A stretch of 64,000 nt of DNA, taken from the NCBI GenBank assembly GCA_038065315.1, contig JBBTRF010000001.1, forward strand, positions 392,425 through 456,424, given 5' to 3'. Positions within the stretch are counted from its first letter, which is position 1. Every line of letters begins with the position of its first letter. Under the pieces are notes generated by a model, which was not told the DNA's origin, did no database searches, and was given only the letters and a program-made list of their open reading frames with translations. Shown one piece after another: positions 3,240 to 49,808 of this stretch. Both the position numbers and the translations under genes were made by a program. The stretch comes from Patescibacteria group bacterium (lineage in GTDB: Bacteria; Patescibacteriota; Minisyncoccia; Phycocordibacterales; JBBTRF01).

Positions 3240-3507
3240 AGCCGTTGATCAGGATTGAACTGATGACCTCGTCATTCGTTTACACCTCATCTTGCGAGAG
3301 GACTAGACTGTATCTTTCTCCGCTTCCGCATTCCTGCCAGAAGTGGAGACCCTTGTCAGTCGTTCGGGCGTCGAACTGTTCGGCGCCACGGTCTTGTCCA
3401 GTATTTGGATATTAACCGTTATTCGGGATTCGCGACGGAATTGCTTCCATCGTGGGCAGGGGTGACGACCCACCAATGACGTGCTCTACCAACTGAGCTA
3501 CAACGGC
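3240..3507 (-). tRNA. tRNA-Thr (anticodon GGU) interrupted by a ~195-nt group I intron in the anticodon loop (after position 36)
   Basis: 5' exon GCCGTTGTAGCTCAGTTGGTAGAGCACGTCATTGGT (3472-3507) and 3' exon AATGACGAGGTCATCAGTTCAATCCTGATCAACGGCT (3240-3276) reconstitute a canonical cloverleaf with loop TTGGTAA. The intervening 195 nt (3277-3471) ends in G, the upstream exon ends in U, and the intron contains P7/S-like AAGATACAGTCTAGTCC and R-like GAACGACTGACAAGG elements. Confidence 0.6.
3277..3471 (-). other. Putative group I intron within tRNA-Thr(GGU)
   Basis: See tRNA feature: exon U / intron-terminal G, GACTG...CAGTC P7-like pairing, size similar to the Azoarcus tRNA intron (~200 nt). 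Confidence 0.5.
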
Positions 3508-3567
3508 AACTGAGCTACCAAGGTAGAGTAATATATTTACCTTCTTTAATCAACTATCACTTTCACC

Positions 3568-4329
3568 CTACCACTTCCTCTCCAAATACGCGGTCACCGT
3601 GCGGCGCTTGAAGGCACGACCATTCAAAATATGGCGATGAGATTTTTCGAGCTTCTTGATCTCAAATTGTTCACCAAAAAATGCATCAATCTCCTCCTCC
3701 GTCCACACATGCTCGGCCAAGCCAAATTTCGGATGAATATACGAGCCTGCTTCCCCTGCCGGATTGTCACGAAGTAAACGCTTGGTATGTAAATCACCAT
3801 CGGCACAAAAGGTCTTGAAAAAGAACCACCCGCCTGGCTTCAAAATCCGTGCGACCTCGTCTCGAAACACCACACGCTGGGCCTCATTCAAAAAGTGTGA
3901 AGACATCATGTCGAGCACCACATCCACCGACTCATCAGCGAGCTCTGGAAACGTGCCCTCAATCGAACGCGCCTCAAAAGTGAGGAGCGGGGCGATGGCA
4001 ACAGAAGCATTGCCATCTTCAGCTTTCGACTCAGCATCCACCTTCTCCGCCACCGATTTGGCCTGACGAATCGCCTCGCCGGAAATATCATAGCCAATCG
4101 CCCGACATCCAAATGTCTTCGCAAAATACACCATGTTGCGCCCGTTGCCACAGCCCATATCTACCACCAAGGAATTCGCATCGATGCCGAGGATCGCCTG
4201 CGGCTCCTTCTCCCAGGCACGCGCCACCCATCGAGCAAACTTCTCCAGGTCCTCCGAAGGCTGCTCCGAAAGCGCCAGATGCTTCGGGCTCTTGTATTCC
4301 TTATTCCAAAAATCTTGATGATGAGACAT
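3568..4329 (-). CDS. Class I SAM-dependent methyltransferase
   Basis: Motif VVDMGCGNGR (SAM-binding motif I) and acidic motif II; start chosen at internal MSHHQDFW so it does not overlap the tRNA-Asp gene. Confidence 0.7.
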   Translation of the reverse strand: MSHHQDFWNKEYKSPKHLALSEQPSEDLEKFARWVARAWEKEPQAILGIDANSLVVDMGCGNGRNMVYFAKTFGCRAIGYDISGEAIRQAKSVAEKVDAESKAEDGNASVAIAPLLTFEARSIEGTFPELADESVDVVLDMMSSHFLNEAQRVVFRDEVARILKPGGWFFFKTFCADGDLHTKRLLRDNPAGEAGSYIHPKFGLAEHVWTEEEIDAFFGEQFEIKKLEKSHRHILNGRAFKRRTVTAYLERKW

Positions 4330-4571: not shown

Positions 4572-5147
4572 TCATCGTATGGCGAATACGGTGCCTGAAG
4601 TCGAAGGATGGGATCGTCCCAACGGAATGTTCAAGGCGAGGCCGACGATGAGGTCCCCGCTCCGGAATCCCCGCGGCGCCGAACCTTCGGTGGGATAACG
4701 ATATTGAACGATGAGATCCGTGCCAAAAAGCGGCTTGCCGGATGCTCCGCGAAATTTCCAGAATGTCCACTGATAGGCATCGGCAGCCGAACGAGCAGTA
4801 GGTTCTTGGATGTGGATTAGGCTGCTCACGTTGGGCGGCGGGACGATCCGTTCGCCGAAGACCGTGATTACTTCGCCAAAGTGTTCGACGGCGGTTTGTG
4901 CGGTCGAAACCTTCGGCTGAGCCAAAGCCAACTTCACCGGATACGGCAACCGTTCTGGTGCATTTGCCGGCAAGCTGAACGGGCCAACCCGCACCGTCGG
5001 TTTGGTCGCGACGGGGTCGAGCTTGGCATACTGCACATAGCCTCCGAGAGTGCTGCCAGGCTTCTCCTCTGCCTGCACTCGCGCACCCGACACGCCGACC
5101 AGCCAAATGGCCGTCAGCCCGACAATGACCGACTCGAGTTTTTTCAT
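4572..5147 (-). CDS. Hypothetical secreted protein (signal peptide)
   Basis: Start at MKKLESVIVGLTAIWLVGVSGARVQA (signal-peptide-like) rather than the upstream MVHVV; no recognisable domain. Confidence 0.45.
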   Translation of the reverse strand: MKKLESVIVGLTAIWLVGVSGARVQAEEKPGSTLGGYVQYAKLDPVATKPTVRVGPFSLPANAPERLPYPVKLALAQPKVSTAQTAVEHFGEVITVFGERIVPPPNVSSLIHIQEPTARSAADAYQWTFWKFRGASGKPLFGTDLIVQYRYPTEGSAPRGFRSGDLIVGLALNIPLGRSHPSTSGTVFAIR

Positions 5148-5352
5148 AGGCGTTCCTCCGACGAGACAGACCACATGGACCATGCATTACCGACATTTCA
5201 GGGATCGAAACGAGCTACAACCGACCTCGTTTTTCCTAATGAATAAGTGTATACCTGCCGGCAAAATCTGCAATATCGGATGGTGCGCGAAAAGCAAAAA
5301 AGGCCTCGTTGAGGCGTATTTTTGACGTGTTGTAATGCTGCACCACTCTTTG

Positions 5353-5426
5353 TGCCGGAGACAGGACTCGAACCTGTGACCTTCTCTTTATGAGTGAGAT
5401 GCTCTAGCCACCTGAGCTACTCCGGC
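5353..5426 (-). tRNA. tRNA-Met/Ile2 (anticodon CAU), elongator type
   Basis: Reverse complement GCCGGAGTAGCTCAGGTGGCTAGAGCATCTCACTCATAAAGAGAAGGTCACAGGTTCGAGTCCTGTCTCCGGCA; loop CTCATAA gives CAT. It is not an initiator: 1-72 are paired and there are no 3 G-C pairs in the anticodon stem. An A31-A39 mismatch is present; Met versus lysidine-Ile cannot be decided from sequence. Confidence 0.8.
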
Positions 5427-5464
5427 ATCACTAAAGAATATAGCACAAATATCGTTTTGGACAA

Positions 5465-5821
5465 TTAAATCTTTTTTGTTCTTTTTACAGTCCTAATTCG
5501 GTGACAGTTAGCACAAACAAGCTCACATCTAGATATTTCGGTCTTTATTCTGTTCAAACTTGAGGTTTTCCGCTTAAAGTCTGCCAAATTAAAGCTTTTC
5601 TTCCCAACATGGTCAAATTCTAAAACCTGAGGGTATTCTCCTCCGCAGAAACCACAATCGATACAACTTCTCATTTTTTTATATTCACAAATATACTCGA
5701 GTATTTTCTGCTTCAACCTGTTTACATACGAAATGTGCTTTTTCTTATTTTTTGGATACCACACCTCTCTCATATATCTCTTGTGGTTTTGACGATGTTT
5801 TTCTGGATCACGATATGGCAT
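5465..5821 (-). CDS. Free-standing HNH endonuclease (homing-endonuclease-like), AT-rich
   Basis: About 117 aa starting MPYRDPEK; motifs CIDCG...EFDH...CANCH (HNH / zinc-finger nuclease). GC content drops sharply over 5440-5870 relative to flanks. Confidence 0.7.
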   Translation of the reverse strand: MPYRDPEKHRQNHKRYMREVWYPKNKKKHISYVNRLKQKILEYICEYKKMRSCIDCGFCGGEYPQVLEFDHVGKKSFNLADFKRKTSSLNRIKTEISRCELVCANCHRIRTVKRTKKI

Positions 5822-5921
5822 AGTCATCATATTATATATTATTTTTATGATGCCGTTAAGAAGAATGCTTTTGAAACGAAAAACAGGCGCCATTCCGAGC
5901 GTCTGTTTTTCGTTTTCCTTG

Positions 5922-6225
5922 TTGCGGGGCCGCGAATTGCACGCGGGCCTCAAGGTTATGCTTACCACTTCGGCTTTCGCCGCACCGACTTGGCTTCGTG
6001 GTCTGGACTATACCTTCTTCCGAAAGATACTCTTGTCTCGTTACGGAAGCCTGCCATCTAGTCTCTACACCTTCCGAGATTTTGCTCGGCTTGGCTCGGT
6101 ATTGCCACCCCTCCCCAAAGTTGAGAAGACGAGGTTTCACCGAATTTGACAAGTTATCAATACCGATTACTCGATAGTGAGCCCTAAAAATTGAGCCTTG
6201 CGAGTTACTGCTTCTCTACCCCGCG
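5922..6225 (-). tRNA. Initiator tRNA-fMet (anticodon CAU) interrupted by a ~233-nt group I intron between U33 and C34
   Basis: 5' exon CGCGGGGTAGAGAAGCAGTAACTCGCAAGGCT (6194-6225) plus 3' exon CATAACCTTGAGGCCCGCGTGCAATTCGCGGCCCCGCAA (5922-5960) give a cloverleaf with the C1:A72 mismatch typical of initiators, loop CTCATAA and a CCGCG/CGCGG T-stem. The intron (5961-6193) ends in G after an exon U and contains GGCAATACCGAGCCAAGC...GAAGGTGTAGAGACTAGATGG, near-identical to the Azoarcus tRNA-Ile group I intron (IC3) core. Confidence 0.7.
5961..6193 (-). other. Group I intron (IC3, Azoarcus-like) in tRNA-fMet
   Basis: Core block similarity to the Azoarcus intron (GGCAA.GCCGAGCCAAGC ... GGUGUAGAGACUAGA); 5' splice after U, 3' terminal G. 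Confidence 0.65.
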
Positions 6226-6327: not shown

Positions 6328-7074
6328 CTAAAGAAACCGCCCCTCCTTCAACACCGTCTCAAACAGCCCGATAATTCTCCGTGCCTCATGCTGAGACAGT
6401 GCAAAATTTGCACCATCATGTGCGATCCTGTTGCGCACCAAATGCGCTTCCCACGCTTTCTGCACGCTCGGAATCGTGTGCTCATTCACCGACTTCAGAC
6501 GATCCGCCACAGTGTCACCAAACGTCCCCATCCCCTTTAGCATGTCATCCAAAATAATATCTGCCTCGAGGATCGCCAAGCGCCAATCGGATTCGCTTGC
6601 TGAACTGACGTTTTCCACGACGGCAGCCCAACGCTCGGCATTACGTGCCTTCTTTTCAATCTCGGCAGACTCGTCAAAGATCGGCAATCCAACGGGAACC
6701 CCGGTCGGCAAATTGGCCGGCCCGCCATGATTTGCACTCGCACCGTGCGCCGCAGCACCCTCGGCTGCCCCATGCTTCTTCCTCGGTGCAGCCCGATGAT
6801 GCCGGCGGATTTCAATCTGCTTCGCTTGCATTCTGGCATAGATGGTACCGACAATAAAGAGGAGGGACAGGAAGATGGAGAAAAACCGTGCCGCAAATAG
6901 TGCGGTCTCAAGCGTTTGTTGATAATCCGCACCGGCAATATCAAAAAAGAAATTGATGATCCAAATGAAGATATCTTCAAACGACAGAGACGGGAGTCTT
7001 GGGATTTGGTCTGTGCTGCTCGCAGTGTTCGCCGAGCTTGCCGCGGCTTGTAAAAAAGAAAACAGAGGGTTCAT
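6328..7074 (-). CDS. Hypothetical membrane-anchored protein
   Basis: 248-aa ORF with an N-terminal hydrophobic segment (IFIWIINFFFDIAG...FFSIFLSLLFIVG) and a Gly/Ala/His-rich linker; no assignable domain. Confidence 0.5.
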   Translation of the reverse strand: MNPLFSFLQAAASSANTASSTDQIPRLPSLSFEDIFIWIINFFFDIAGADYQQTLETALFAARFFSIFLSLLFIVGTIYARMQAKQIEIRRHHRAAPRKKHGAAEGAAAHGASANHGGPANLPTGVPVGLPIFDESAEIEKKARNAERWAAVVENVSSASESDWRLAILEADIILDDMLKGMGTFGDTVADRLKSVNEHTIPSVQKAWEAHLVRNRIAHDGANFALSQHEARRIIGLFETVLKEGRFL

Positions 7075-7095: not shown

Positions 7096-8529
7096 CTAGG
7101 CGAGGAAATCTTTGGCGCAGTGGAAAAGTGTCGCGTCGGCTTTGTGCGGTGCCATGAGCTGGATGCCAAGTGGCAACTGCTTCTCCTCTTTCTCGACAAA
7201 GCCTGATGGAATCGAGATCGCTGGCACGCCCACGAGGTTAGCTGTGACGGTGAAAATGTCGGCTAGGTACATCTGTAGCGGGTCAGCCGACTTTTCGCCG
7301 ATTTTGAAAGCGGGTACAGGTGAAGTCGGCGTCAAAATAAAATCAACTTTTTTGAACGCTTCCGCAAAATCAACCCTGATCATATCGCGCACGAGATTGG
7401 CCTTCGCATAATACGCATCGTAGTAGCCGGAAGAGAGGATGTAGTTGCCCATCATGATGCGGCGACGTACCTCTTTGCCAAAGCCTTCCGTGCGAGTGCG
7501 AAGATAGTCAGCGAGCAGGTCGTTACCCTCTTTCAAAGCTCCGTACTTCATGCCATCGAAGCGTGAGAGGTTCGATGAGGCTTCGGCCGGCATGATCACG
7601 TAGTACACCGCAAGCGAATATTCAATATTTGGCAGTTCGATCTCGACGATCTCATATCCAAGCTTTTTGTATTGCGCAACCGCTGCCTCAAAATTCGCCA
7701 ACACCTCGGCGTCGATACCCTCCTTCATAAAATGTCGGGGAATCCCAATGCGTTTTTTCGCCGAAGAAACAGCGGTGCTTTTTATCCCATTGAACGCACT
7801 CTCAGGCAATGTCGTACTGTCATGCTCATCATGTCCTGCCATCGCATCAAAAAGGATTTGCGCATCGTCGGCATTTTTCGCGATAGTACCAATCTGATCG
7901 AGCGACGAACCCATCGCCATCAGACCATATCGAGAGATCGCACCGTAGGTCGGTTTGAAACCAACCACCCCGCAGAGGCTCGCCGGCTGGCGCACCGAAC
8001 CGCCGGTATCCGAACCCAAAGCGGCGAGCGCCCCGAACATCGCCACTGCCGCCGCTGAACCACCAGAAGAGCCGCCGGACACACGAGACTCATCGTGCGG
8101 ATTGTGCACCGGACCGTATGCCGAGTTTTCGTTGGAGCCGCCCATCGCGAATTCATCCATGTTGGTGCGGCCAATAAACACCACGCCTTCTTTTTTGAGA
8201 CGCGCGATTGCGGTCGCATCATACGGCGCGACATACCCCTCGAGAATCTTCGACGCTGCACCCGCACGTCGACCCTTGATCAAAATATTGTCCTTCACCG
8301 CGATCGGAATGCCGGTGAGCAAACTGCCCTTTCCTTCTTTGATCAGCACATCGGCCGCCTTGGCCTGATCGAGCACATCGCTGAATACTTCGAGGTACGC
8401 ATTGATTTTGGCGTTTTTCGCAGCGATTTCGTCGAGATACGCCTGCGCCAATTGCACAGCGGTAAAGTCACCTTTTACAAAAGCGTCGTGCGCACTGCGA
8501 ATCGTGATGGTTTTGAGATCGATCTTCAT
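7096..8529 (-). CDS. gatA: Glutamyl/aspartyl-tRNA amidotransferase subunit A
   Basis: 477 aa; amidase signature GGSSGGSAAAVA with the Ser-cisSer-Lys context; typical GatA length. Confidence 0.9.
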   Translation of the reverse strand: MKIDLKTITIRSAHDAFVKGDFTAVQLAQAYLDEIAAKNAKINAYLEVFSDVLDQAKAADVLIKEGKGSLLTGIPIAVKDNILIKGRRAGAASKILEGYVAPYDATAIARLKKEGVVFIGRTNMDEFAMGGSNENSAYGPVHNPHDESRVSGGSSGGSAAAVAMFGALAALGSDTGGSVRQPASLCGVVGFKPTYGAISRYGLMAMGSSLDQIGTIAKNADDAQILFDAMAGHDEHDSTTLPESAFNGIKSTAVSSAKKRIGIPRHFMKEGIDAEVLANFEAAVAQYKKLGYEIVEIELPNIEYSLAVYYVIMPAEASSNLSRFDGMKYGALKEGNDLLADYLRTRTEGFGKEVRRRIMMGNYILSSGYYDAYYAKANLVRDMIRVDFAEAFKKVDFILTPTSPVPAFKIGEKSADPLQMYLADIFTVTANLVGVPAISIPSGFVEKEEKQLPLGIQLMAPHKADATLFHCAKDFLA

Positions 8530-27136: not shown

Positions 27137-27228
27137 GGAGGGGTGTCAGAGCGGTCGAATGTACCTCTTTGCTAAAGAGGCAGGGTCTAAACAACCCTCG
27201 GGGGTTCGAATCCCCCCCCTTCCGCACC
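27137..27228 (+). tRNA. tRNA-Ser (anticodon GCU), class II
   Basis: Acceptor GGAGGGG/CCCTTCC, anticodon arm CCTCT-TTGCTAA-AGAGG, long variable arm CAGGGTCTAAACAACCCTCG, T-arm GGGGG-TTCGAAT-CCCCC. Confidence 0.75.
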
Positions 27229-27405: not shown

Positions 27406-27492
27406 GGAAAGATGGATGAGTGGTTTAAATCAACGGTTTACTAAACCGTCGTCCCGTTACACGGACCGTGGGTTCGAATCCCACTCTTTCCG
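27406..27492 (+). tRNA. Class II (Ser-type) tRNA with apparent anticodon ACU
   Basis: GGAAAGA acceptor, D GAT/ATC, anticodon arm ACGGT-TTACTAA-ACCGT (perfect 5-bp stem forces loop TTACTAA), long variable arm, T-arm GTGGG-TTCGAAT-CCCAC. Confidence 0.5.
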
Positions 27493-27557
27493 CAGTAAGA
27501 AAAATGTATCGGGAGACCCGAGTGCCCAAAAAGGTCATTTTAAGCTAAAATTAAAGC

Positions 27558-37097: not shown

Positions 37098-37110
37098 AAT
37101 GATGCTGATG

Positions 37111-37183
37111 TGCGCCCGGAGGGAGTCGAACCCCCGGCCAGGTGTGTATAAGACACCTGCTCTACCAACTGAGCTACGGGCGC
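37111..37183 (-). tRNA. tRNA-Ile (anticodon UAU)
   Basis: Reverse complement GCGCCCGTAGCTCAGTTGGTAGAGCAGGTGTCTTATACACACCTGGCCGGGGGTTCGACTCCCTCCGGGCGCA; anticodon arm GGTGT-CTTATAC-ACACC gives TAT. Confidence 0.8.
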
Positions 37184-41822: not shown

Positions 41823-42209
41823 GGGGATGCCAGGCATCGACGGAAGAATATCTCTTGAATGTGCGAAGGAGAGCTTCAGTAACTCTTAAAAAGGCTGAAA
41901 ATTCTAAGTGCAAAACTTGGATCTGTAAAGTCTCCGTACTTCGGTGCGGCTGACCTTGCATTCGCTTACGCTAAAGCCTAAGCGACGCCAGCCGGATGGT
42001 TTCCACACCGTTCGGTCCTGACGCTATATTTGTGGAATAGGATCAGCGGAGTCCCGCCGCCGATTCGAGATCATGGGAATAGTGCGTACCGCTTTTCGGT
42101 CGTTTCATAACGGCACGCGCGAATTGCCGCAAGGCATAGAAGCGCCCTACCCTTCGTAGACCCATTCACTAGACTCTTCTGCACGGGGGTTCAATTCCTC
42201 CCATCTCCA
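41823..42209 (+). ncRNA. ssrA: tmRNA (ssrA)
   Basis: 5' GGGGATGCCAGGCATCGACGG... and 3' tRNA-like end GGGGGTTCAATTCCTCCCATCTCCA (T-arm plus acceptor pairing with the 5' GGGGATG); located directly after smpB. Confidence 0.8.
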
Positions 42210-43770
42210 CATCCATAGAGTTTGAAGCCACAAAGTCCTCAAAAAGCCTTACGGCTGCTGGTATTTTATCGGTTCGATAACCGGTGTTTTTGTCGTAATG
42301 CAATTTCTCATTGAAAATGAAGAAGAACGTCTCCTGTTTTTCTCGCGCATCCAAGGAAGTCCATATCTTGTATGGGCTTTTAAGCAGTGTGGATACTTTA
42401 TCCAGAGCGGTTCGATAAGGAATTGTCAGATCGATCTCGCCTACTGAACCCGACCCGAGATTCTCAAGCTCCGTTGAAAGAATTTCAATTTGATCCTCAT
42501 AAGCTCTCTTAGCGGCTTCTACACCTGTCTTCGACGAAGAAATTGCTAGTTTTCCAATGTCCTCCTCTATCGACTTTTTCTTGGTGTTTCGCTCAGCTTC
42601 CTCTTTCTTGAGTTTACCGACTTCGTCTTGCCACACCCCATCAAACACAACCTTTAATAATGCGTCGACTTCTTTCTTAAGAACGCACTTTTTAAGAAGA
42701 ATCTTGAAACGATCTTCAACATCCTTCTTTTTTAGAGATTTTCTGTAAAAGGAACAATCTTTCTTTTGACAAAGATAGTAAGGATGCTTCTTGTTTCGCC
42801 CTTTCGACCAACCGGAAGTAAGATGACTTCCGCATTCATTACACAAAAGAAGACCCCTTAGCGGAAAGTCGTCTCTTACGTCCAATCGCACGCGAATACC
42901 CGAATCTTCCTTGCGCAATCTTTTCTGAATTAGTTCAAAGGTCTCGATTGATATTATCCCCTCGTGTTTACCGAGCCTTCTTTCAACTCCCCGCTTCGGA
43001 TATTCAATATAGCCTGCATAAAACGGATCCTTCATTACAGCACTGATACGGCTTATATACTTATCAGGATTACTACCTTTCCAAAATCCCTTTTTAAGCA
43101 AAAACCGACATACATCGACCCTACTCCTCAAGAAGCCTTTAGCGAACTGCTCGCGTGCCGGCTTGAGCAGTTCCAAGCCGTCTTTTGTGGGCAGAGACAA
43201 CATTCCGTGCGCATGATCCTTAGTCATTTTATAGCCCCTCTTGCTACCATAGGCCCAGTAACCCAATTCCAATCTCGCTCGTTGCTTTTGAGTAACCTGC
43301 CTGTGATTTTGGTGCCTCTCAAGTTCTGCTTGTCCCGCCATAATTAATTCTGAGAAGCGTCCCTCTGGACTTTCATCAAAATTATAGTTCAAACACCTTA
43401 ATACGATATTACGTACCTTGAAAGCAGCTCTTAATTTCAAATGAAATTCCACGTCGCGAGCAAAACGCTTGAGATCGTCGAACACAACAACATATCTCTT
43501 GTCGGGATTTGCGTCTATGTAAGCAAGGAGCTTTCGCATAGCCGGACGATTCATAAAATCACCTCCGCCTGTATAACTATCGGGAAAAGTCTTTGTGTGT
43601 GGAATACCTAATGTCGATAGTTCTTTTACACATCTCCCCTCCTGACTTACTAAGCCTGTCCCCTCAATCTCCTGTCTCTTACTTGAGACGCGTGCGTAAA
43701 CGAGACCCTCCCTGTCCTCGTAAACACTTTTTTGTTGTTGTATCTTTTTGTTTTTTAACATTTTTTTCAA
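42169..43770 (-). CDS. Large serine recombinase (integrase)
   Basis: 533 aa; N-terminal resolvase catalytic domain (YARVSSKRQ ... VVFDDLKRFARD), recombinase domain and Cys-rich zinc ribbon (CNECGSHL...YYLC); C-terminus overlaps the tmRNA 3' end. Confidence 0.85.
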   Translation of the reverse strand: MKKMLKNKKIQQQKSVYEDREGLVYARVSSKRQEIEGTGLVSQEGRCVKELSTLGIPHTKTFPDSYTGGGDFMNRPAMRKLLAYIDANPDKRYVVVFDDLKRFARDVEFHLKLRAAFKVRNIVLRCLNYNFDESPEGRFSELIMAGQAELERHQNHRQVTQKQRARLELGYWAYGSKRGYKMTKDHAHGMLSLPTKDGLELLKPAREQFAKGFLRSRVDVCRFLLKKGFWKGSNPDKYISRISAVMKDPFYAGYIEYPKRGVERRLGKHEGIISIETFELIQKRLRKEDSGIRVRLDVRDDFPLRGLLLCNECGSHLTSGWSKGRNKKHPYYLCQKKDCSFYRKSLKKKDVEDRFKILLKKCVLKKEVDALLKVVFDGVWQDEVGKLKKEEAERNTKKKSIEEDIGKLAISSSKTGVEAAKRAYEDQIEILSTELENLGSGSVGEIDLTIPYRTALDKVSTLLKSPYKIWTSLDAREKQETFFFIFNEKLHYDKNTGYRTDKIPAAVRLFEDFVASNSMDVEMGGIEPPCRRV

Positions 43771-43993
43771 TCTCCTCTCGCACGGCCTTTCGACAAAGCA
43801 TCTCGAGATACCGCAACCTCTTCAATATCTTGTCGTCAGAAATTACCCAATCACCAAGAAGGTCGCGGTAGACATGGGTGGAGACCGTAGTCTCCTTATT
43901 ATCATAGCACCTGTTTTCTTGGCTCATAAAAATAACCTGAGGGTTAGGCCCTTAGGTTATTCGATGACCGATTTAGATTGACTTAAGACGAAT

Positions 43994-44731
43994 CTAAGAC
44001 AAAAGCTTTTTAGGAATTCTCACTGACTGTCTAGTGGTAATAAATGCCCAATCTAGGCTATATTTGAGCAACTTTATCTTAATTTGATAAATCGCGTTGT
44101 AACACCTCTTTTCATCTTGTTTTCCACCACCAAGTCGCTCAGCGATCTCTGAGAAAAACCATTCTTCACCAACCTCTTTCGTATCCTCAAAGATAACCCT
44201 TAGAACATGATACTGATTGGAAAACTTGCGAATTTTAATTGTGTTCCCTTTTATATACAAGAGTGATTTTTCTGGGTCGAAAAAGATGCCATTTGGAGCG
44301 ATTCCAGTATCGCAAGAGTCGCGCTCCACGATCTTCTTCCTCACCGACCTAAGAACCTTTAGCTTTGCTCTGGTCTCCTTGTTGATATTAAAAAGCTCCT
44401 TATCCCCCTCCAAGTTAGGGAAATTTGGTTCTTCGTAGGTGAGTGGGAATGAGCAAACCGAATCCGTCTCGGAAAATATCTCTCTTTCATCCTCAAAAGC
44501 CTCCTTGTCCCTATCAAGAAATTTTCTAACAGCTGCCTTCCATCGAAGATACATTTTCCTAACATCGTGGTAATAGAAGGGGTTGTTCTTCCCATGAGAC
44601 ATGGCAACACCTTGGTTGGTATGGGCAGTTATTGTAATCCCCCGTTCGAACAACTTACCAATCCCCTCTGACAGGTCAGCATCTAAAATACTGGGGATGA
44701 GATCTGGTAATTTTAGCCTTCGTGGGTCCAT
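43994..44731 (-). CDS. Hypothetical protein (island cargo)
   Basis: 245-aa AT-rich ORF, no recognisable domain. Confidence 0.4.
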   Translation of the reverse strand: MDPRRLKLPDLIPSILDADLSEGIGKLFERGITITAHTNQGVAMSHGKNNPFYYHDVRKMYLRWKAAVRKFLDRDKEAFEDEREIFSETDSVCSFPLTYEEPNFPNLEGDKELFNINKETRAKLKVLRSVRKKIVERDSCDTGIAPNGIFFDPEKSLLYIKGNTIKIRKFSNQYHVLRVIFEDTKEVGEEWFFSEIAERLGGGKQDEKRCYNAIYQIKIKLLKYSLDWAFITTRQSVRIPKKLLS

Positions 44732-44972
44732 CAGTAGAAAGAAAGTGATTATATGCTAGTATATAAGCACAATTGAATTGTTTTGAGTAGCCTAAACCAC
44801 ACAAGCAATTGTTGGCATGGCGAAAAGCCCAGTAACGACCAAAAAACCCATCATATGGGGTTGTCGTTACTGGCCGTACAGGGAAACTTGTATGGAGGGC
44901 GTAAGCTCTCACCCATGTGGTGGGCTTTTTGCTACCCAACACTTGGTTAGAAGTTAGACCAGTAACATCTCA

Positions 44973-45305
44973 ATGACCAAAACCGGACTCCGCTATCATT
45001 TATTTTTGGCAGTACACCTAATTGGTATAGTGCTTATTATTTCGGGAATAGCTTTCATATTTCTGAACATGCTCATCATTACGAGTGATGGCGTAAGTCA
45101 TTTTGACTTACTCGGACTACCTATACCCACACCGCCGATTTGGTTTTCCTACATACCCTACTATGGATCCTTACTGGGCCAATTTTACGAAATGTTCTCG
45201 TGGCACGGCCTTGTTGAAATTGTCATAACAGCAACCTTAATTTTCCTGGGTGTTGGCCTAAACAATCTAAAGGTAACTGGGATCGCTCACCGACCGAAAA
45301 AATGA
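44973..45305 (+). CDS. Small integral membrane protein (3 TM; island cargo)
   Basis: 110 aa, three hydrophobic helices; 4-nt overlap with the next ORF. Confidence 0.4.
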   Translation: MTKTGLRYHLFLAVHLIGIVLIISGIAFIFLNMLIITSDGVSHFDLLGLPIPTPPIWFSYIPYYGSLLGQFYEMFSWHGLVEIVITATLIFLGVGLNNLKVTGIAHRPKK

Positions 45306-46087
45306 ATCTTAAAACAACATCAAAAGAGAAACTTCAAGAGCTACTCATTGCTGCCATGAGAGAGGAATTAGAGGACCAAAAAGCTGCCAAAAAAGATCGG
45401 TTTATAAGGGCGGCCAATTTAGCAATGGCGGAGGCCGATGAAAGAAATGCTGAATATGAACGCAACCTAAGAAAGGTCCTGAGTGAGGCAAAAGATAACA
45501 TGCCACGAATGAGTAACAACGGGGCTACAGTGGAGATAAAATTCATTGATTATCCCAATGGGTATATTCGGTATTCCTTATCGTTCCTCCACAGCAAGAA
45601 ATCCTTTCTAAATCCAGAATCACTTACCGAAAACCCCGTCACTTTCTATGAAGAAGGCAAAGAGTCTTTGATCCCCTTCTTTGAAAGCTTCTTGGAAGAC
45701 GAAGTGCAGTCGAGATACGAACCGCTAGAGCCTGATGTAAGGATTGAGGGCAAGAAATTACCGCACCAGTTTTTTAGGTTTACCTTCCTTATCAACGAAA
45801 GTAAGATCAAGCAACCTGAAGAAAATGATGTCGCCTACGGTGGCTTTATTCCCGCCCTGACACTAGAGGTTTCAAGAGTAGAGCTTTGGAAGTTTGTCTC
45901 GGAACTCCGCAAAGATTACGACGACTGGGCACTCAGAAATAACGGTCCGAAGATAAAGCGACAAAGCATAGTGAAATACGTGAAGTTAAGAAAGGTTGCT
46001 GAGGGTGTCATCGTGGCTCTAATCTGGATCCTCATCATCTTCATCTGGAATCAATTCGAACAACTTTGGAGAATATTGCTCTCGTAG
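45302..46087 (+). CDS. Hypothetical protein with C-terminal TM anchor (island cargo)
   Basis: 261 aa; coiled-coil N-terminus, C-terminal VIVALIWILIIFIW helix; co-transcribed with the preceding membrane ORF. Confidence 0.4.
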   Translation: MNLKTTSKEKLQELLIAAMREELEDQKAAKKDRFIRAANLAMAEADERNAEYERNLRKVLSEAKDNMPRMSNNGATVEIKFIDYPNGYIRYSLSFLHSKKSFLNPESLTENPVTFYEEGKESLIPFFESFLEDEVQSRYEPLEPDVRIEGKKLPHQFFRFTFLINESKIKQPEENDVAYGGFIPALTLEVSRVELWKFVSELRKDYDDWALRNNGPKIKRQSIVKYVKLRKVAEGVIVALIWILIIFIWNQFEQLWRILLS

Positions 46088-46158
46088 TTTAACGGAAAAA
46101 CAAGGCCGTTCTAACGCCAAGATGCGGGTTCAATTCCTGCCGAGAGTACTTGGAATTA
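46088..46158 (+). tRNA. tRNA-like element / degenerate tRNA (possible att-site remnant), anticodon region reads UCU if folded
   Basis: GCTCTCG acceptor, D arm GTTT/AAAC, T-arm GCGGG-TTCAATT-CCTGC and 3' CGAGAGT pair correctly, but the anticodon stem has only 3 bp. T-loop core GGGTTCAATTCCT is identical to that of the tmRNA 3' end. Confidence 0.35.
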
Positions 46159-46545
46159 AACAGACTGATTCTTTAGCCTAGCAAGGGTTTCATTGAGATT
46201 CCTGATTGTCTCATCATGGCGGCTATCTCGTTCCGTATCACCTCCATTAAGGAGTTGGATATTTTTCGTGAGCTTATCCAAAGCATCTACAAGATCGCGA
46301 TATTTAGCCTTCCTGACGGTCTTAGTCATATGTTTGATGGCAAGAGTACGTTGTATCTCCAACTCCTCAACAAGGGGCCTTATTGCCTCTTTGTAGGCCT
46401 TTGTACCGGTGACAATCTTCGGTGTTTTAGACACAGACTCAGAATATCCGTGCTTTTTGAGGATTTTGCCCATATTCAATTTCCGACCTTTTCCGAGGTT
46501 TTCCATCACTTCTCCTGCTACGCTTTTGGCGTTTATGCTGGTCAT
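46156..46545 (-). CDS. Hypothetical protein (island cargo)
   Basis: 129-aa AT-rich ORF. Confidence 0.35.
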   Translation of the reverse strand: MTSINAKSVAGEVMENLGKGRKLNMGKILKKHGYSESVSKTPKIVTGTKAYKEAIRPLVEELEIQRTLAIKHMTKTVRKAKYRDLVDALDKLTKNIQLLNGGDTERDSRHDETIRNLNETLARLKNQSV

Positions 46546-46697
46546 CTTAAAATTAATTACTTTGATAAAACGGACTTCAAGCCAACCTCACGAGAAACAT
46601 CAATTAGTGCAATTATAACACTGGAAGTGCCTGATTTTCAGCCACGCCTCCCCGCATTGCAATAACTACCCGAAATCTGTAGGCTGGGTCTAATGTT

Positions 46698-47471
46698 ATG
46701 AAGAAAGGGATCTGCAAAATGTGTCTTAAAAACAAGGACCTCCTCAAGGAATCGCATATTATTCCTAAATCTTTGTATAAGCTCCTAGCCGGGAAAAATG
46801 GCCTTTTGGTCTTCCTGAACTCCAAGCGACCTGAGCTTAAATACAACAGTGCTTACGATAAATATATTTTATGCGCAGACTGTGATGGTGGAATCATTGG
46901 GAAACTGGATGACTACGGGGCAAAATTCTTACACGCTAAATTTCCCAACAAGAGTACACCGCAGACAAGGTATGTAGACGGAGAAAAATGCCTCGTTTTC
47001 GAAGACGACCCAAACTATGACTACACCAAATTTAAGCTGTTCTTACTTTCGATTCTGTGGCGCAGCAGCGTATCTTCCCACCCCTTCTTTAGGGCAGTGA
47101 AACTATCGCCTGACACTAAAGAAATCTTAAGACTAATGATCAAGGATGGCGATGCGGGCAAACCGGACGAATACCCCTGCTTTATACACTTACCGCCAGT
47201 AACGGAAAGCTCTGAGGGACATCATGGCTTTAACATAGCCCACTTGCCTACGATGTCACCAGTCTGCGTCGAAACAGACGGAATAAAAATCTGCAAATTT
47301 ATCATTACGGGTTGCCACTACTATTTTATAATCGACAGGCCCAAAAACATCAGAGTGATACCGAGCATGGAAAAAGATAGGCTTACTATTAGATTCAGCA
47401 CAAGGATGGAGCAAGACATGCTGATCCAACAAATATTCGAAATAATCCGTGATCAAAAAGATACTCAGTAG
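46698..47471 (+). CDS. HNH-like nuclease motif protein (island cargo)
   Basis: N-terminus CKMCLKNKDLLKESHIIPKS...LCADCDG fits the CxxC...H-(I/V)IP...CxxC HNH pattern; remainder unassigned. Confidence 0.45.
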   Translation: MKKGICKMCLKNKDLLKESHIIPKSLYKLLAGKNGLLVFLNSKRPELKYNSAYDKYILCADCDGGIIGKLDDYGAKFLHAKFPNKSTPQTRYVDGEKCLVFEDDPNYDYTKFKLFLLSILWRSSVSSHPFFRAVKLSPDTKEILRLMIKDGDAGKPDEYPCFIHLPPVTESSEGHHGFNIAHLPTMSPVCVETDGIKICKFIITGCHYYFIIDRPKNIRVIPSMEKDRLTIRFSTRMEQDMLIQQIFEIIRDQKDTQ

Positions 47472-48136
47472 TAAAGACCATAGCGCTTGATCAGAGCGAC
47501 AAAATCCTTGTAAGTACTAGAGTGGCGAATGGCTTTTTCTTCGTTAAAATGGCTTCCTACAGATTGTGAGATGTCTTTTGCACCAACCGTCTTATTTAGG
47601 TCAACAAAAGAATTAAATTTCTCTTTACAGTGACAACTCGATGTAGTACTAGACAACAGTCTATTCAGCTCACTATCATGTTGATCTTTAAAATCTGGAA
47701 AGTTCGATTCTAATCCAGCAAAATACCAACTTTCAATCTCCACCTCAACTGGACAAATAAGGACCTCCTTGAATGATACGGAGGAACTGGCCACGGCCTC
47801 CTCAATTAACTTTTTCCTGACGCCACTCTGACTCTGGTCAATATCAAAAAGGACAACTAGATAGAGTTCAAAATCATTACCAAAAAGATAGGTGTGATTC
47901 TTGATGAAAAGAGAAGCAATTTGATATGTATCGGGCTTCTTTAATCTTTCCTTTCCAGCAACCTTACTACCAAGCTGGGGCGGGAAAGGAAAAAACCAAA
48001 AGACTTCATCCTTACTGTATATCGAAGAATTGCCATCCTTAAGGAGCTTTGATTCAAAAGACCTTCTTTCCAACAATCTCGGCAAAAAGTATCTTTCACT
48101 ATCCCCCTCTCCGATTAGCAAGCAGACCTTTTTCAT
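47465..48136 (-). CDS. Toprim-like (DUF4276/RloB-like) protein, partner of the AAA ATPase
   Basis: Start MKKVCLLIGEGDSERYF (conserved Glu), later LVVLFDIDQ (DxD) - Toprim catalytic signature; ATG overlaps the ATPase stop as ATGA (48133-48136). Confidence 0.55.
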   Translation of the reverse strand: MKKVCLLIGEGDSERYFLPRLLERRSFESKLLKDGNSSIYSKDEVFWFFPFPPQLGSKVAGKERLKKPDTYQIASLFIKNHTYLFGNDFELYLVVLFDIDQSQSGVRKKLIEEAVASSSVSFKEVLICPVEVEIESWYFAGLESNFPDFKDQHDSELNRLLSSTTSSCHCKEKFNSFVDLNKTVGAKDISQSVGSHFNEEKAIRHSSTYKDFVALIKRYGLYY

Positions 48137-49509
48137 ACTTCTTTTACTGGAAAAATTCCTTCGATTGTCCCCTGGCAAAATAATTCCGAATTTTTCTTAT
48201 CGGAAATGTACTTCTGCTCCTTCGGTGACAAATTTTCGATGATTGTCTTGTAATTATAAATATTACATCTATTTGCACCCTCTACCACAACGTCTCCGGC
48301 AATAGAAGCCGCGTCCTTTATATAGAATATCTCCTCGGTAGAAAAACCATCCAAAAAATAAGGGGAGTGTGTTGTTATGAAGATTTGAACCCTTCTCGAC
48401 AATGCTCTTAAAACCTCAATAAACTCTATGAGAATAGTCGGATGAACGATCGAATCAGTCTCGTCCAGGAGAAGGACGTGAGGTAATTGATAGCTCCTTT
48501 CCAAGGATCTCAGATTAATCCAGTTAAGTAAGGTAATAAAAAACACCAAAACGGATGTTCCGTTGGAGATTGTCCATATACCATCAGGACCGTTTGGCGA
48601 CGAGACAGACAAAGACCCCTTTGAATTAATCGACACTCCTCGAACTATTCCCTTGGTGTAAAGGTTCAGATCATTAGCAAATTTTTCTTTTATTATTTTA
48701 TTTTTTTCTATATCGCTTATCAAGAAAATAAACTCAGAGTTTTCAAGGCTGGTTTTGTTAGAAGGAACACCTCCATCCTTGAGTCGTCTCAAAGCTTCCT
48801 GATAAATCTGCTCATTCCCTTTGTCCGTTACATATTTATGAAGTGACAAAGCGGTCGTTATGTTACCCATATCGACACTAAGAAACTTCGGTCTAAACTG
48901 GGAAACAACGCTGTTTTGTAAATGTTCAAATATGGCAAAATAATTGTCGCCCTGCGGGTTTTTTATCGGATTCGACTGGATGATATTAGTATCACCTATG
49001 TTTTCTGTCTTCGAAAAATTCTTTTCGTAAACAAGGGTATCCTTCATCGTTACTGCACCTTTTTCAAAAAGAGAGTTATCTTTTGCAAAGGCTGACCATT
49101 TTATCTCACGATCCCTATTTACGTATTGCTTACCAGTAAAAAAGAGTTTGTGTAAGGTCGAGAAGCTATTTTTATCTAAAACTTTTTCGAATATCATCGC
49201 CTCGGTCTCGACACAAAAAAAATCAGTCTGTTCGTCCACCTGATTTCCGCCAACAAAACAAGTTCTTGCACTCTTATTCTCTATTGAGGTCTTCAACGAA
49301 GTAGTTCGAAGCCCTTGACCGATAGTAACATTATTGCCGCCAAACTCTTGAGTGTAGTCAGTTTTAATTTTCAGTGCAGAACTAATTGCCAACAGAAAAT
49401 TGGATTTACCACTTGAATTTCTGCCCGTAAAAACATTAAGATCGCCGAAGGAGATATCGGCCTTACTAATATTCCTAAAGTTCTTAATCTCAATATTTCT
49501 AATTTTCAT
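48133..49509 (-). CDS. AAA family ATPase (AAA_15/AAA_21, OLD/ABC-like) of a two-gene defense-type module
   Basis: 458 aa; Walker A VFTGRNSSGKSNFLLAI at N-terminus, Walker B/D-loop LLLDETDSIVHP and H-loop ITTHSPYF at C-terminus, long coiled middle. Confidence 0.75.
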   Translation of the reverse strand: MKIRNIEIKNFRNISKADISFGDLNVFTGRNSSGKSNFLLAISSALKIKTDYTQEFGGNNVTIGQGLRTTSLKTSIENKSARTCFVGGNQVDEQTDFFCVETEAMIFEKVLDKNSFSTLHKLFFTGKQYVNRDREIKWSAFAKDNSLFEKGAVTMKDTLVYEKNFSKTENIGDTNIIQSNPIKNPQGDNYFAIFEHLQNSVVSQFRPKFLSVDMGNITTALSLHKYVTDKGNEQIYQEALRRLKDGGVPSNKTSLENSEFIFLISDIEKNKIIKEKFANDLNLYTKGIVRGVSINSKGSLSVSSPNGPDGIWTISNGTSVLVFFITLLNWINLRSLERSYQLPHVLLLDETDSIVHPTILIEFIEVLRALSRRVQIFITTHSPYFLDGFSTEEIFYIKDAASIAGDVVVEGANRCNIYNYKTIIENLSPKEQKYISDKKNSELFCQGTIEGIFPVKEV

Positions 49510-49808
49510 GACGATAAGTCTATCACAAAATGAGGCGAAATGCGATAATATTTAGTATTTCAAACCCTAAATTTACGGAAATAGCCTTATTTATCAACGA
49601 ATATCAATTCTGAAATACTCCCACAGAGGTATTTCGAGTGGGTCACTATTCAAACAAAGGATGCAATACGTCACTTGTGTCCCCTCTCCGACTATAAGAT
49701 CAAGCATTCTCAAGGGCATTTTGCAGTGTTAGGCTTGAATTGTAATAGCTCCAAAACCGAGAAAGGTAGGATTTTACTCGGTTCAATGTCTTTCGTGACA
49801 TCTCCACA

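Follow-up and report, generated by a model that had tools for sequence, protein, structure and literature searches.

The initiator and elongator methionine tRNA genes of a Patescibacteria group bacterium are separated by a small, low-GC gene for a predicted endonuclease of the HNH type, which we describe here from a 64,000-nucleotide (nt) stretch of its genome (hereafter the window; contig JBBTRF010000001.1 of assembly GCA_038065315.1, positions 392,425–456,424). All elements of the locus lie on the minus strand. The initiator tRNA gene (tRNA-fMet) is split into a 5′ exon (6225–6194; tRNA positions 1–33, last base U33), which was read from the sequence and is supported by a regular-expression match to the intron-less initiator tRNAs of relatives, and a 3′ exon (5960–5922) that runs from C34 to A73, the CCA end not being encoded. 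Joined, the exons give a 72-nt tRNA-Met(CAU) cloverleaf (ARAGORN) that carries both A11:U24 and the C1×A72 mismatch typical of bacterial initiator tRNAs. Between U33 and C34 lies a 233-nt intron without an open reading frame (ORF) (6193–5961, here 'type A'), preceded by an exon ending in U and itself ending in G; its score against Rfam Intron_gpI (RF00028; 51.9 bits, gathering score 50) and the valid tRNA restored at its boundaries identify it as a group I intron at position 33/34.

The HNH gene (5821–5465, 118 amino acids plus stop) is free-standing. It lies outside the intron, its start codon 100 nt past the end of the tRNA-fMet 3′ exon (5922), with two further features in between. The first is a strong hairpin with a U-rich 3′ arm (5915–5874), terminator-like in both directions (RNA folding, −21 kcal/mol, z = −3.8, with 0 of 200 shuffles folding as well), at which a simple terminator scan made no call. 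The second is a sigma-70-like promoter (−35 TTAACG at 5859–5854, 17-nt spacer, −10 TATAAT at 5836–5831; 10 of 12 matches in a consensus scan) that would drive the HNH gene. The start codon lies ~10 nt past the −10 box, so that any leader is short or absent, and a −10-like box immediately 5′ of the ATG is kept in homologous loci. Overlapping the −10 box is a palindrome, TCATAA-N-TATGA (5850–5827), whose left half-site is the CAU anticodon loop, (c)TCATAA. The elongator tRNA-Met(CAU) (5426–5352; ARAGORN, Rfam tRNA 66.9 bits) begins 38 nt after the HNH ORF and is followed by a terminator-like hairpin (5315–5303, either strand, from a consensus scan). On the other side, tRNA-fMet is adjoined by a conserved left neighbour of the module, a 248-amino-acid host gene with no Pfam match (gene X, 6328–7074), and next after it by gatA (7096–8529). 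A preliminary description had given the coordinates, distances and motifs of the HNH gene beside these tRNAs correctly; its plural 'tRNA introns' has to be reduced to one, since searches of the 64 kb found no further group I intron, and likewise no second HNH copy.

The ORF is a genuine gene that is held under purifying selection. It has 693 homologues (E ≤ 1e-3), and the ratio of non-synonymous to synonymous divergence (dN/dS) is 0.10 against the orthologue of the closest genome, L006 (81% identity; related loci are designated by L numbers throughout), and 0.02–0.13 in 15 pairs, so that a chance reading frame can be dismissed. Initiation at the alternative in-frame ATG at 5830 or at 5827 would lengthen the product to 121 or 120 amino acids, whereas most homologues start at MPY (MPYRD...) and an identical 118-amino-acid protein is present in the database. 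The GC content drops to 0.35–0.37 over 5400–5900, compared with ~0.52–0.59 in the flanks; the ORF itself has 0.35, against 0.54. Within the ORF it is low at all three codon positions (0.35/0.34/0.36, against third-position (GC3) values of 0.58–0.66 in neighbouring genes), and amino-acid content alone is therefore not the cause. The gene is poorer in GC than its host in 48 of 48 loci, yet its GC content climbs with that of the host. Recent acquisition from an AT-rich donor was rejected as the sole cause of the low GC content, as the L006 orthologue is equally AT-rich at a synonymous divergence (dS) of 0.94.

The protein is taken here as a divergent HNH member and predicted nuclease. It contains the motifs C56xxC59, D73-H74 and C106xxC109-H110, in which the four cysteines, H74 and H110 are invariant in 41 homologues; the features of the superfamily, namely two CxxC pairs that make up the zinc site, a catalytic His (DH) behind strand 1 and, within the helix, a His that binds metal, are thus invariant or nearly so across these sequences. 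The middle Asn of the H-N-H motif is not obvious, and an invariant C102 lies near its position. Profile searches matched PHROG 3106 (E 2.3e-18), PHROG 2255 (E 2.8e-18) and PHROG 4234 (E 5e-8), whose name 'HNH endonuclease' is an annotation rather than a demonstrated function, while the Pfam HNH profile (PF01844) gave 16.7 bits at E = 0.008, below its cut-off of 21.4, and touched 29 of the 41 family members at E ≤ 0.1 (best E 3.9e-4). A confident AlphaFold2 model (predicted local distance difference test score 91.8) shows a 44-residue N-terminal helix followed by strand-strand-helix, for which a Foldseek search of the Protein Data Bank (PDB) returned nothing at E below 0.8. Sequence searches of the PDB, queried with the protein alone and with a profile of 41 sequences, yielded only matches to ferredoxin and cytochrome c, which were set aside as chance similarities through the CxxC motifs, and the NCBIfam matches, all to iron-sulfur proteins, were spurious. 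Both the HNH assignment and the local collapse in GC content proposed in the preliminary description are borne out, with the qualification that the protein is a divergent member of its superfamily.

Close relatives (47–81% identity, ~120 amino acids) are confined to metagenome-assembled genomes (MAGs) of Patescibacteria, mostly of Paceibacteria type. Among 46 related loci, the HNH gene was always found in one host neighbourhood wherever the flanking sequence sufficed, with the order ligA, gatC, gatA, X (a conserved gene of 200–250 amino acids), tRNA-fMet, tRNA-Met and tRNA-Asp. Its position within this neighbourhood is variable, with at least five arrangements around tRNA-fMet (> and < mark gene direction). 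The window, like many other loci, reads X> fMet> HNH> Met>, and L002 reads X> HNH> fMet> Met>; the remaining forms are X> <HNH fMet>, X> <fMet HNH> Met>, and inverted modules. For sampling independent of the gene itself, we searched metagenomes with host gene X as an anchor and obtained 80 loci, only one of which carries the HNH gene (and duplicates L034). The others include 42 loci with an intron-less tRNA-fMet and 6 with a type-A intron. Comparison of gatA and X showed that carriers with a second type of tRNA-fMet intron (type B, at position 36/37, described below) form one clade, and that the other carriers interleave with non-carriers at 66–77% identity (for example, L009/L151 at 75% and L013/L154 at 77%). 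In L013, tRNA-fMet and tRNA-Met are separated by 402 bp that include the HNH gene; in its nearest relative, L154, the empty site between them measures 48 bp. The gene is therefore present or absent at an otherwise conserved locus, dispensable, and has been repeatedly gained or lost, a patchy distribution that fits a free-standing homing-endonuclease-like element. This is in line with the preliminary description, which saw a free-standing endonuclease of homing-endonuclease size and atypical composition within a tRNA cluster.

The slot between tRNA-fMet and tRNA-Met is also occupied by other nuclease-like genes. In four loci (L116 3236–3922, L157 874–1569, L124 ~3533–4198 and L153 ~3274–3939) it holds a protein of 228–230 amino acids with an N-terminal helix-turn-helix and a LAGLIDADG-like fold, a family with at least 337 homologues in Paceibacteria. 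This gene and the HNH gene are mutually exclusive in the slot, and a 33/34 intron accompanies the LAGLIDADG-like gene in two of the four loci. In L246 (143–781), a 212-amino-acid protein between the two tRNAs joins an N-terminal GIY-YIG domain to the HNH family (62% identity) and is either a true fusion of two nucleases or the product of merged gene calling.

Adjacency to tRNA genes extends throughout the wider family. Distant homologues (32–45% identity) were found in one archaeon and in at least seven phyla, among them Actinomycetota, Acidobacteriota, Proteobacteria and other Patescibacteria. Of 37 such loci, 31 have a tRNA gene on one strand or the other no more than ~150 nt from the stop codon, and 23 have one on the same strand at −40 to +100 nt of the stop. 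The partner tRNA is specific to the subfamily and includes Gln(CTG), Arg(TCG), Pro(TGG), Gly(TCC), Lys(TTT), Glu(CTC), Met and others (L048–L085 in genome contigs, L166–L245 in viral contigs). At least 524 relatives, 33–49% identical, were found in viral contigs, and in 24 of 80 viral loci examined a tRNA lies within 200 nt, often inside a tRNA array. HNH nicking enzymes also occur in the tRNA region of phage T5. Earlier work on T4-type and mycobacterial systems had already noted HNH genes within tRNA clusters (PMC2330249, PMC6582537). The comparison with the seg genes of T4 tRNA clusters drawn in the preliminary description is apt, given a wider family that adjoins tRNA genes across many phyla as well as within the tRNA arrays of phages.

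The association reaches into the reading frame. The HNH ORF of relatives often extends into the first 10 nt of tRNA-Met, and ORFs lacking a stop of their own and ending within the tRNA were seen, for example, in L001 (4017–4026), L009, L013, L018, L025, L053, L064, L081 and L084. Altogether the ORF reads into the tRNA in 26 loci, in 13 of which the overlap is exactly 10 nt, placing the stop codon, usually TAG, at tRNA positions 8–10; with five tRNA-Gln partners the overlap is 15 nt and ends at TAA in the D-loop. The unrelated LAGLIDADG-like ORFs likewise take their stop from the tRNA (L116 3913–3922, L157 1560–1569).

A conserved element upstream of the gene resembles the anticodon loop of the partner tRNA. 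TCATA, at −23 to −44 relative to the HNH start, is present in 38 of the 46 related loci, and 30 of these 38 have the inverted partner TATGA ~19 nt downstream, over the −10-like box. The palindrome of the window is unique in the 64 kb (0.06 occurrences expected), and across the dataset it has 26 matches in loci with the HNH gene, compared with 3 in 295 kb of loci without it. Its TCATAA is the CAU anticodon loop minus the first base, and in the type-B clade the upstream copy is lengthened to TCATAACCT(C), the uninterrupted 36/37 site. The 33/34 and 36/37 introns both split CTCATAA, the sequence copied by the palindrome. In 17 full-length distant homologues, the region from −70 to −10 contains T followed by the partner anticodon and a purine in 11 cases, compared with 2.0 expected from non-cognate anticodons (z = 7.3). 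Copies of the anticodon loop 30–45 nt upstream were identified in L055, L064, L070 and L071 (TTCGAA), in L072, L076 and L083 (TCTGA/TCTGG), in L061 and L081 (TGAGAATC) and in L168 (CTCTTAA), and the copy of the window lies at 5845–5850; upstream of a viral HNH gene next to tRNA-Lys(CTT), the loop is reproduced exactly, as CTCTTAA, at −38. In L072, the 73 nt upstream of the gene form a partial copy of the 5′ part of tRNA-Gln, and an intact tRNA-Gln follows the gene. Local alignment of HNH upstream regions with the neighbouring tRNA recovered clear pseudo-tRNA copies only in L072 and L076 (tRNA-Gln, p ≤ 0.003), and by this method no disrupted tRNA copy was found upstream of the gene in the window's own family. 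Action of the palindrome as an RNA hairpin is unlikely in transcripts from the proximal promoter, as it overlaps the −10 box, and possible in read-through transcripts.

A selected gene with HNH-type motifs, a patchy distribution, tRNA adjacency throughout its family and a conserved element at its promoter is, in our judgement, probably a small, divergent, free-standing HNH gene (ββα-metal, Cys4 zinc) of a homing-endonuclease-like, tRNA-associated family, long resident at this locus, under selection, and furnished with a probable operator that mimics the anticodon loop. Its activity as a nuclease, its target, its homing and its autoregulation are predicted from the sequence as follows. The protein would recognise the DNA of tRNA genes, with the anticodon-loop region of tRNA-fMet or tRNA-Met as the likeliest site, and would cut or nick alleles that lack the HNH gene, whereupon repair could copy the gene in beside the tRNA. 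The promoter palindrome may act as an operator that holds HNH expression low, by analogy with I-TevI, and the neighbouring 33/34 intron would be inherited independently of the HNH gene.

The last of these steps departs from the preliminary description, in which the HNH gene might account for the intron, and the evidence comes from the distribution of introns among loci. Of 39 loci with the HNH gene, 14 have a tRNA-fMet without an intron and with the anticodon arm that is most frequent in genomes lacking the gene, four (the window, L006, L021 and L034) have a type-A intron at 33/34, the classical tRNA-fMet intron site (PMC13011429), and 21 (L004, L015, L016, L020, L022, L024, L026–L032, L038–L044 and L046) have the type-B intron, a different group I intron of 243–340 nt at 36/37. 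Type-A introns are mutually homologous (57–89%) and occur both with and without the HNH gene. That of the window is 89% identical to the L006 intron and 57–71% identical to eight other 33/34 introns, and homologous introns are present in six loci without the HNH gene. These six loci, together with the 14 intron-less carriers, show that the 33/34 intron and the HNH gene are not co-distributed and weaken the proposal that the one was mobilised by the other; mobilisation of the neighbouring 33/34 intron by the HNH gene is not supported. The preliminary description had allowed that host-like synteny and composition in relatives without introns would speak against its proposal, and this was observed in part, the gene keeping its locus and co-diverging with gatA.

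The locus nevertheless has the make-up of a collaborative pair, an endonuclease gene beside a gene with an ORF-less intron of the self-splicing (group I) type, and the HNH protein could be imagined to cut intron-less tRNA-fMet at or near the intron site, the intron protecting its carrier and both elements being co-converted into naive genomes. There are precedents for such pairs: F-CphI is coupled to the psbA intron, and MobE to I-TevIII (PMC3984707, PMC2790892, PMC6083498). It is also consistent with this possibility that two unrelated introns both break the CTCATAA copied by the palindrome, with the type-B copy extending over TCATAACCT(C), and that introns are commoner in loci with the HNH gene (25 of 39) than in those without it (6 of 48), although the loci are phylogenetically non-independent. 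The type-B intron was found together with the HNH gene in 21 of 21 loci, with exons near-identical across a clade whose GatA proteins share only 47–90% identity, and the gene is missing beside five intron-less alleles whose anticodon arm is the same, among them L095 with exons 100% identical. These type-B loci were, however, sampled through the HNH gene and belong to one clade, so that the co-occurrence may reflect a single event, and the host of L095 is not nested in that clade. Moreover, family members beside Gln, Arg, Pro, Lys, Glu and other tRNAs have intron-less partners, and the intron and HNH gene of the window have both diverged from those of L006 roughly as the host has. With the intron-less carriers and the introns in genomes without the gene set against it as well, we regard collaborative homing as unlikely. 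A recent survey, which looked inside introns only, concluded that the tRNA introns of Patescibacteria are mostly devoid of homing endonuclease genes and that their horizontal transfer is hence limited (PMC13011429).

Several observations weigh against a mobile, tRNA-cutting element of the kind favoured here. Among carriers, the identity of the HNH protein follows that of gatA (r = 0.84, slope 1.05), and dS relative to L006 is high; no recent transfer is visible, and the history looks mostly vertical. In the type-B clade, the HNH protein is more conserved than GatA (92% vs 73%), an uncommon pattern in a gene that is purely selfish, and one that would fit a role in the host. A test for exact 6-mers of the own loop in 31 distant loci, including GC-rich non-Patescibacteria, was only marginal, with 6 matches against 2.8 expected (P = 0.05), and the anticodon-motif signal is carried by the full-length, mostly patescibacterial members. 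A search of the anticodon arm in the carriers' intron-less tRNA-fMet genes found no resistance substitutions, and the elongator tRNA-Met also has an intact CTCATAA. Were the arm by itself the target, the unchanged arm of intron-less carriers would imply self-cleavage, which would have to be avoided by other means.

A further reading to be taken seriously is that the gene has been domesticated, either as a DNA-binding regulator or nuclease for the tRNA-fMet/tRNA-Met operon or as a gene that is hard to lose because its promoter and frame interlock with the downstream tRNA, with homing lost. The strong purifying selection, the conservation above GatA in one clade, the co-divergence with the host at a locus that is fixed over host GC contents of 0.33 to 0.64, and the conserved operator-like palindrome on the gene's own promoter are all in keeping with this, as are the ORFs ending in the tRNA, whose precise deletion could harm tRNA expression; embedded promoters favouring retention have been described for T4 endonuclease genes (PMC2988022). 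We nevertheless consider domestication improbable, since the gene is dispensable, being absent from 79 of 80 X-anchored loci including near relatives of carriers, its catalytic His and zinc Cys are invariant, its GC3 is persistently atypical, and other genomes fill its slot with a gene of the unrelated LAGLIDADG fold or with a GIY-YIG fusion, a turnover typical of selfish nucleases and not of a single role in the host. A remnant of a phage or mobile island, tied to tRNAs only through integration at a tRNA gene, would account for the best profile matches being phage protein families, for the relatives in viral contigs and for the low GC content, but it is rejected as highly improbable because the insert is one gene (~0.4 kb) without integrase, repeats or other island genes, the host synteny is intact on both sides, the viral relatives are only distantly similar and dozens of genomes carry this one-gene insert.

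For the favoured reading, that of a free-standing homing-endonuclease-like gene, the co-divergence with the host has to be set beside local conflicts between trees. The HNH protein of L007 is closest to that of L001, while its host is closest to that of L021, and the hosts of L045 and L046 are sisters while their HNH proteins are not. The picture is that of an old, selected resident that appears to have moved occasionally, and not of a recent arrival.

Other observations on the window and its tRNA genes are recorded here in their own right. The T-loop of the tRNA-fMet (T arm 5931–5947) reads UGCAAUU, with G in place of the near-universal U55; the TGCAA T-loop is also found in initiator and elongator tRNA-Met genes of relatives, and in the anticodon stem of the initiators no more than two pairs are G-C (A29:U41). 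A minus-strand ORF of 203 amino acids with a signal-peptide-like N-terminus (4572–5183), located between tRNA-Met and tRNA-Asp, shares 47% identity with its L006 counterpart, compared with 85–94% for its neighbours, and is either a fast-evolving or a replaced gene. Elsewhere, a transfer-messenger RNA (tmRNA) gene (41823–42212) is followed by a 7.4-kb low-GC stretch (42400–49800; 0.36–0.45 vs ~0.53) that holds a LOOT RNA (44789–44910, 85 bits) and a tRNA-Arg(TCT) (46078–46149) and looks like an island integrated at the tmRNA gene. Two adjacent tRNA-Ser genes lie at 27137–27225 and 27406–27493, ARAGORN giving one of them the unusual anticodon ACT, and a tRNA-Ile(UAU) (37110–37183) suggests AUA decoding without lysidine.

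Beyond the locus itself, it is possible, and we propose it tentatively, that the family represents a large undescribed class of endonuclease genes that 'read' tRNAs, each subfamily lying 5′ of one tRNA species, often ending within its first 10–15 nt, and carrying a copy of its anticodon loop ~30–45 nt before the start codon as both target mimic and operator. Introns in the anticodon loop, at 33/34 and 36/37, might then persist partly by breaking the recognition element and shielding an essential single-copy tRNA. If the anticodon loop is the recognition element, selfish nucleases would have a general landing pad in tRNA genes, in cells and phages alike, and there would be a testable reason for the persistence of anticodon-loop introns in extremely reduced genomes. 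At least two unrelated folds, HNH and LAGLIDADG-like, as well as a GIY-YIG fusion compete for one 50-bp slot, and ~118 amino acids is very small for a sequence-specific nuclease, which makes the protein attractive for biochemistry. If this is merely one more free-standing HNH gene, its interest is routine.

In the literature searched, we found neither the anticodon-copy motif nor a chromosomal, tRNA-fMet-linked family in Patescibacteria. The nearest systems within the phylum are the HNH genes in tRNA-Asn introns at 35/36 (PMC13011429), which share the HNH type and the link to a tRNA anticodon loop but are intron-encoded and reach the Pfam HNH threshold, whereas the present family is free-standing and falls outside that survey, which covered introns >500 bp. 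Endonuclease genes thus do exist directly beside an intron-bearing initiator tRNA gene, outside the reach of an intron-only survey (PMC13011429). I-Ssp6803I of cyanobacterial tRNA-fMet introns shares the host gene and the 33/34 site, but it is intron-encoded, belongs to the PD-(D/E)XK nuclease family and comes from another phylum, while the intron in the window has no ORF (PMC13011429, PMC3984707). Free-standing endonucleases beside a group I intron with no ORF or a defunct one are likewise known from cyanophage S-PM2 (F-CphI and the psbA intron) and from T4 (MobE and I-TevIII); there, however, the target is the intron site and the elements co-occur, whereas the 33/34 intron of the window type and the HNH gene are separate in many genomes (PMC3984707, PMC6083498, PMC2790892).

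Among endonucleases associated with tRNA clusters, the HNH genes of mycobacterial and phage tRNA arrays are interspersed with tRNAs in the same way, and distant homologues of the present family occur in phage arrays, but those arrays are horizontally acquired and contain multiple tRNAs, whereas the gene in the window sits at a single-copy housekeeping pair, the initiator/elongator tRNA-Met genes, and co-diverges with its host (PMC6582537, PMC5966550). T4 SegB, which is thought or has been shown to drive inheritance of the T4 tRNA region, resembles it in being a free-standing endonuclease gene between tRNA genes with its own promoter (PMC2330249, PMC2988022). SegB differs in being a phage-borne GIY-YIG enzyme with experimentally established activity, while the window gene encodes a divergent, predicted HNH nuclease on a bacterial chromosome; nor has an anticodon-like operator been described for SegB, whereas the window gene has an anticodon-like palindrome. 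For that element the closest parallel is I-TevI, in which a sequence overlapping the promoter resembles the homing site (PMC2988022), just as the palindrome in the window resembles the anticodon loop of the partner tRNA, its presumed target. Binding and repression have been shown for I-TevI, and a corresponding role of the palindrome is suggested by its conservation and its covariation with the partner anticodon.

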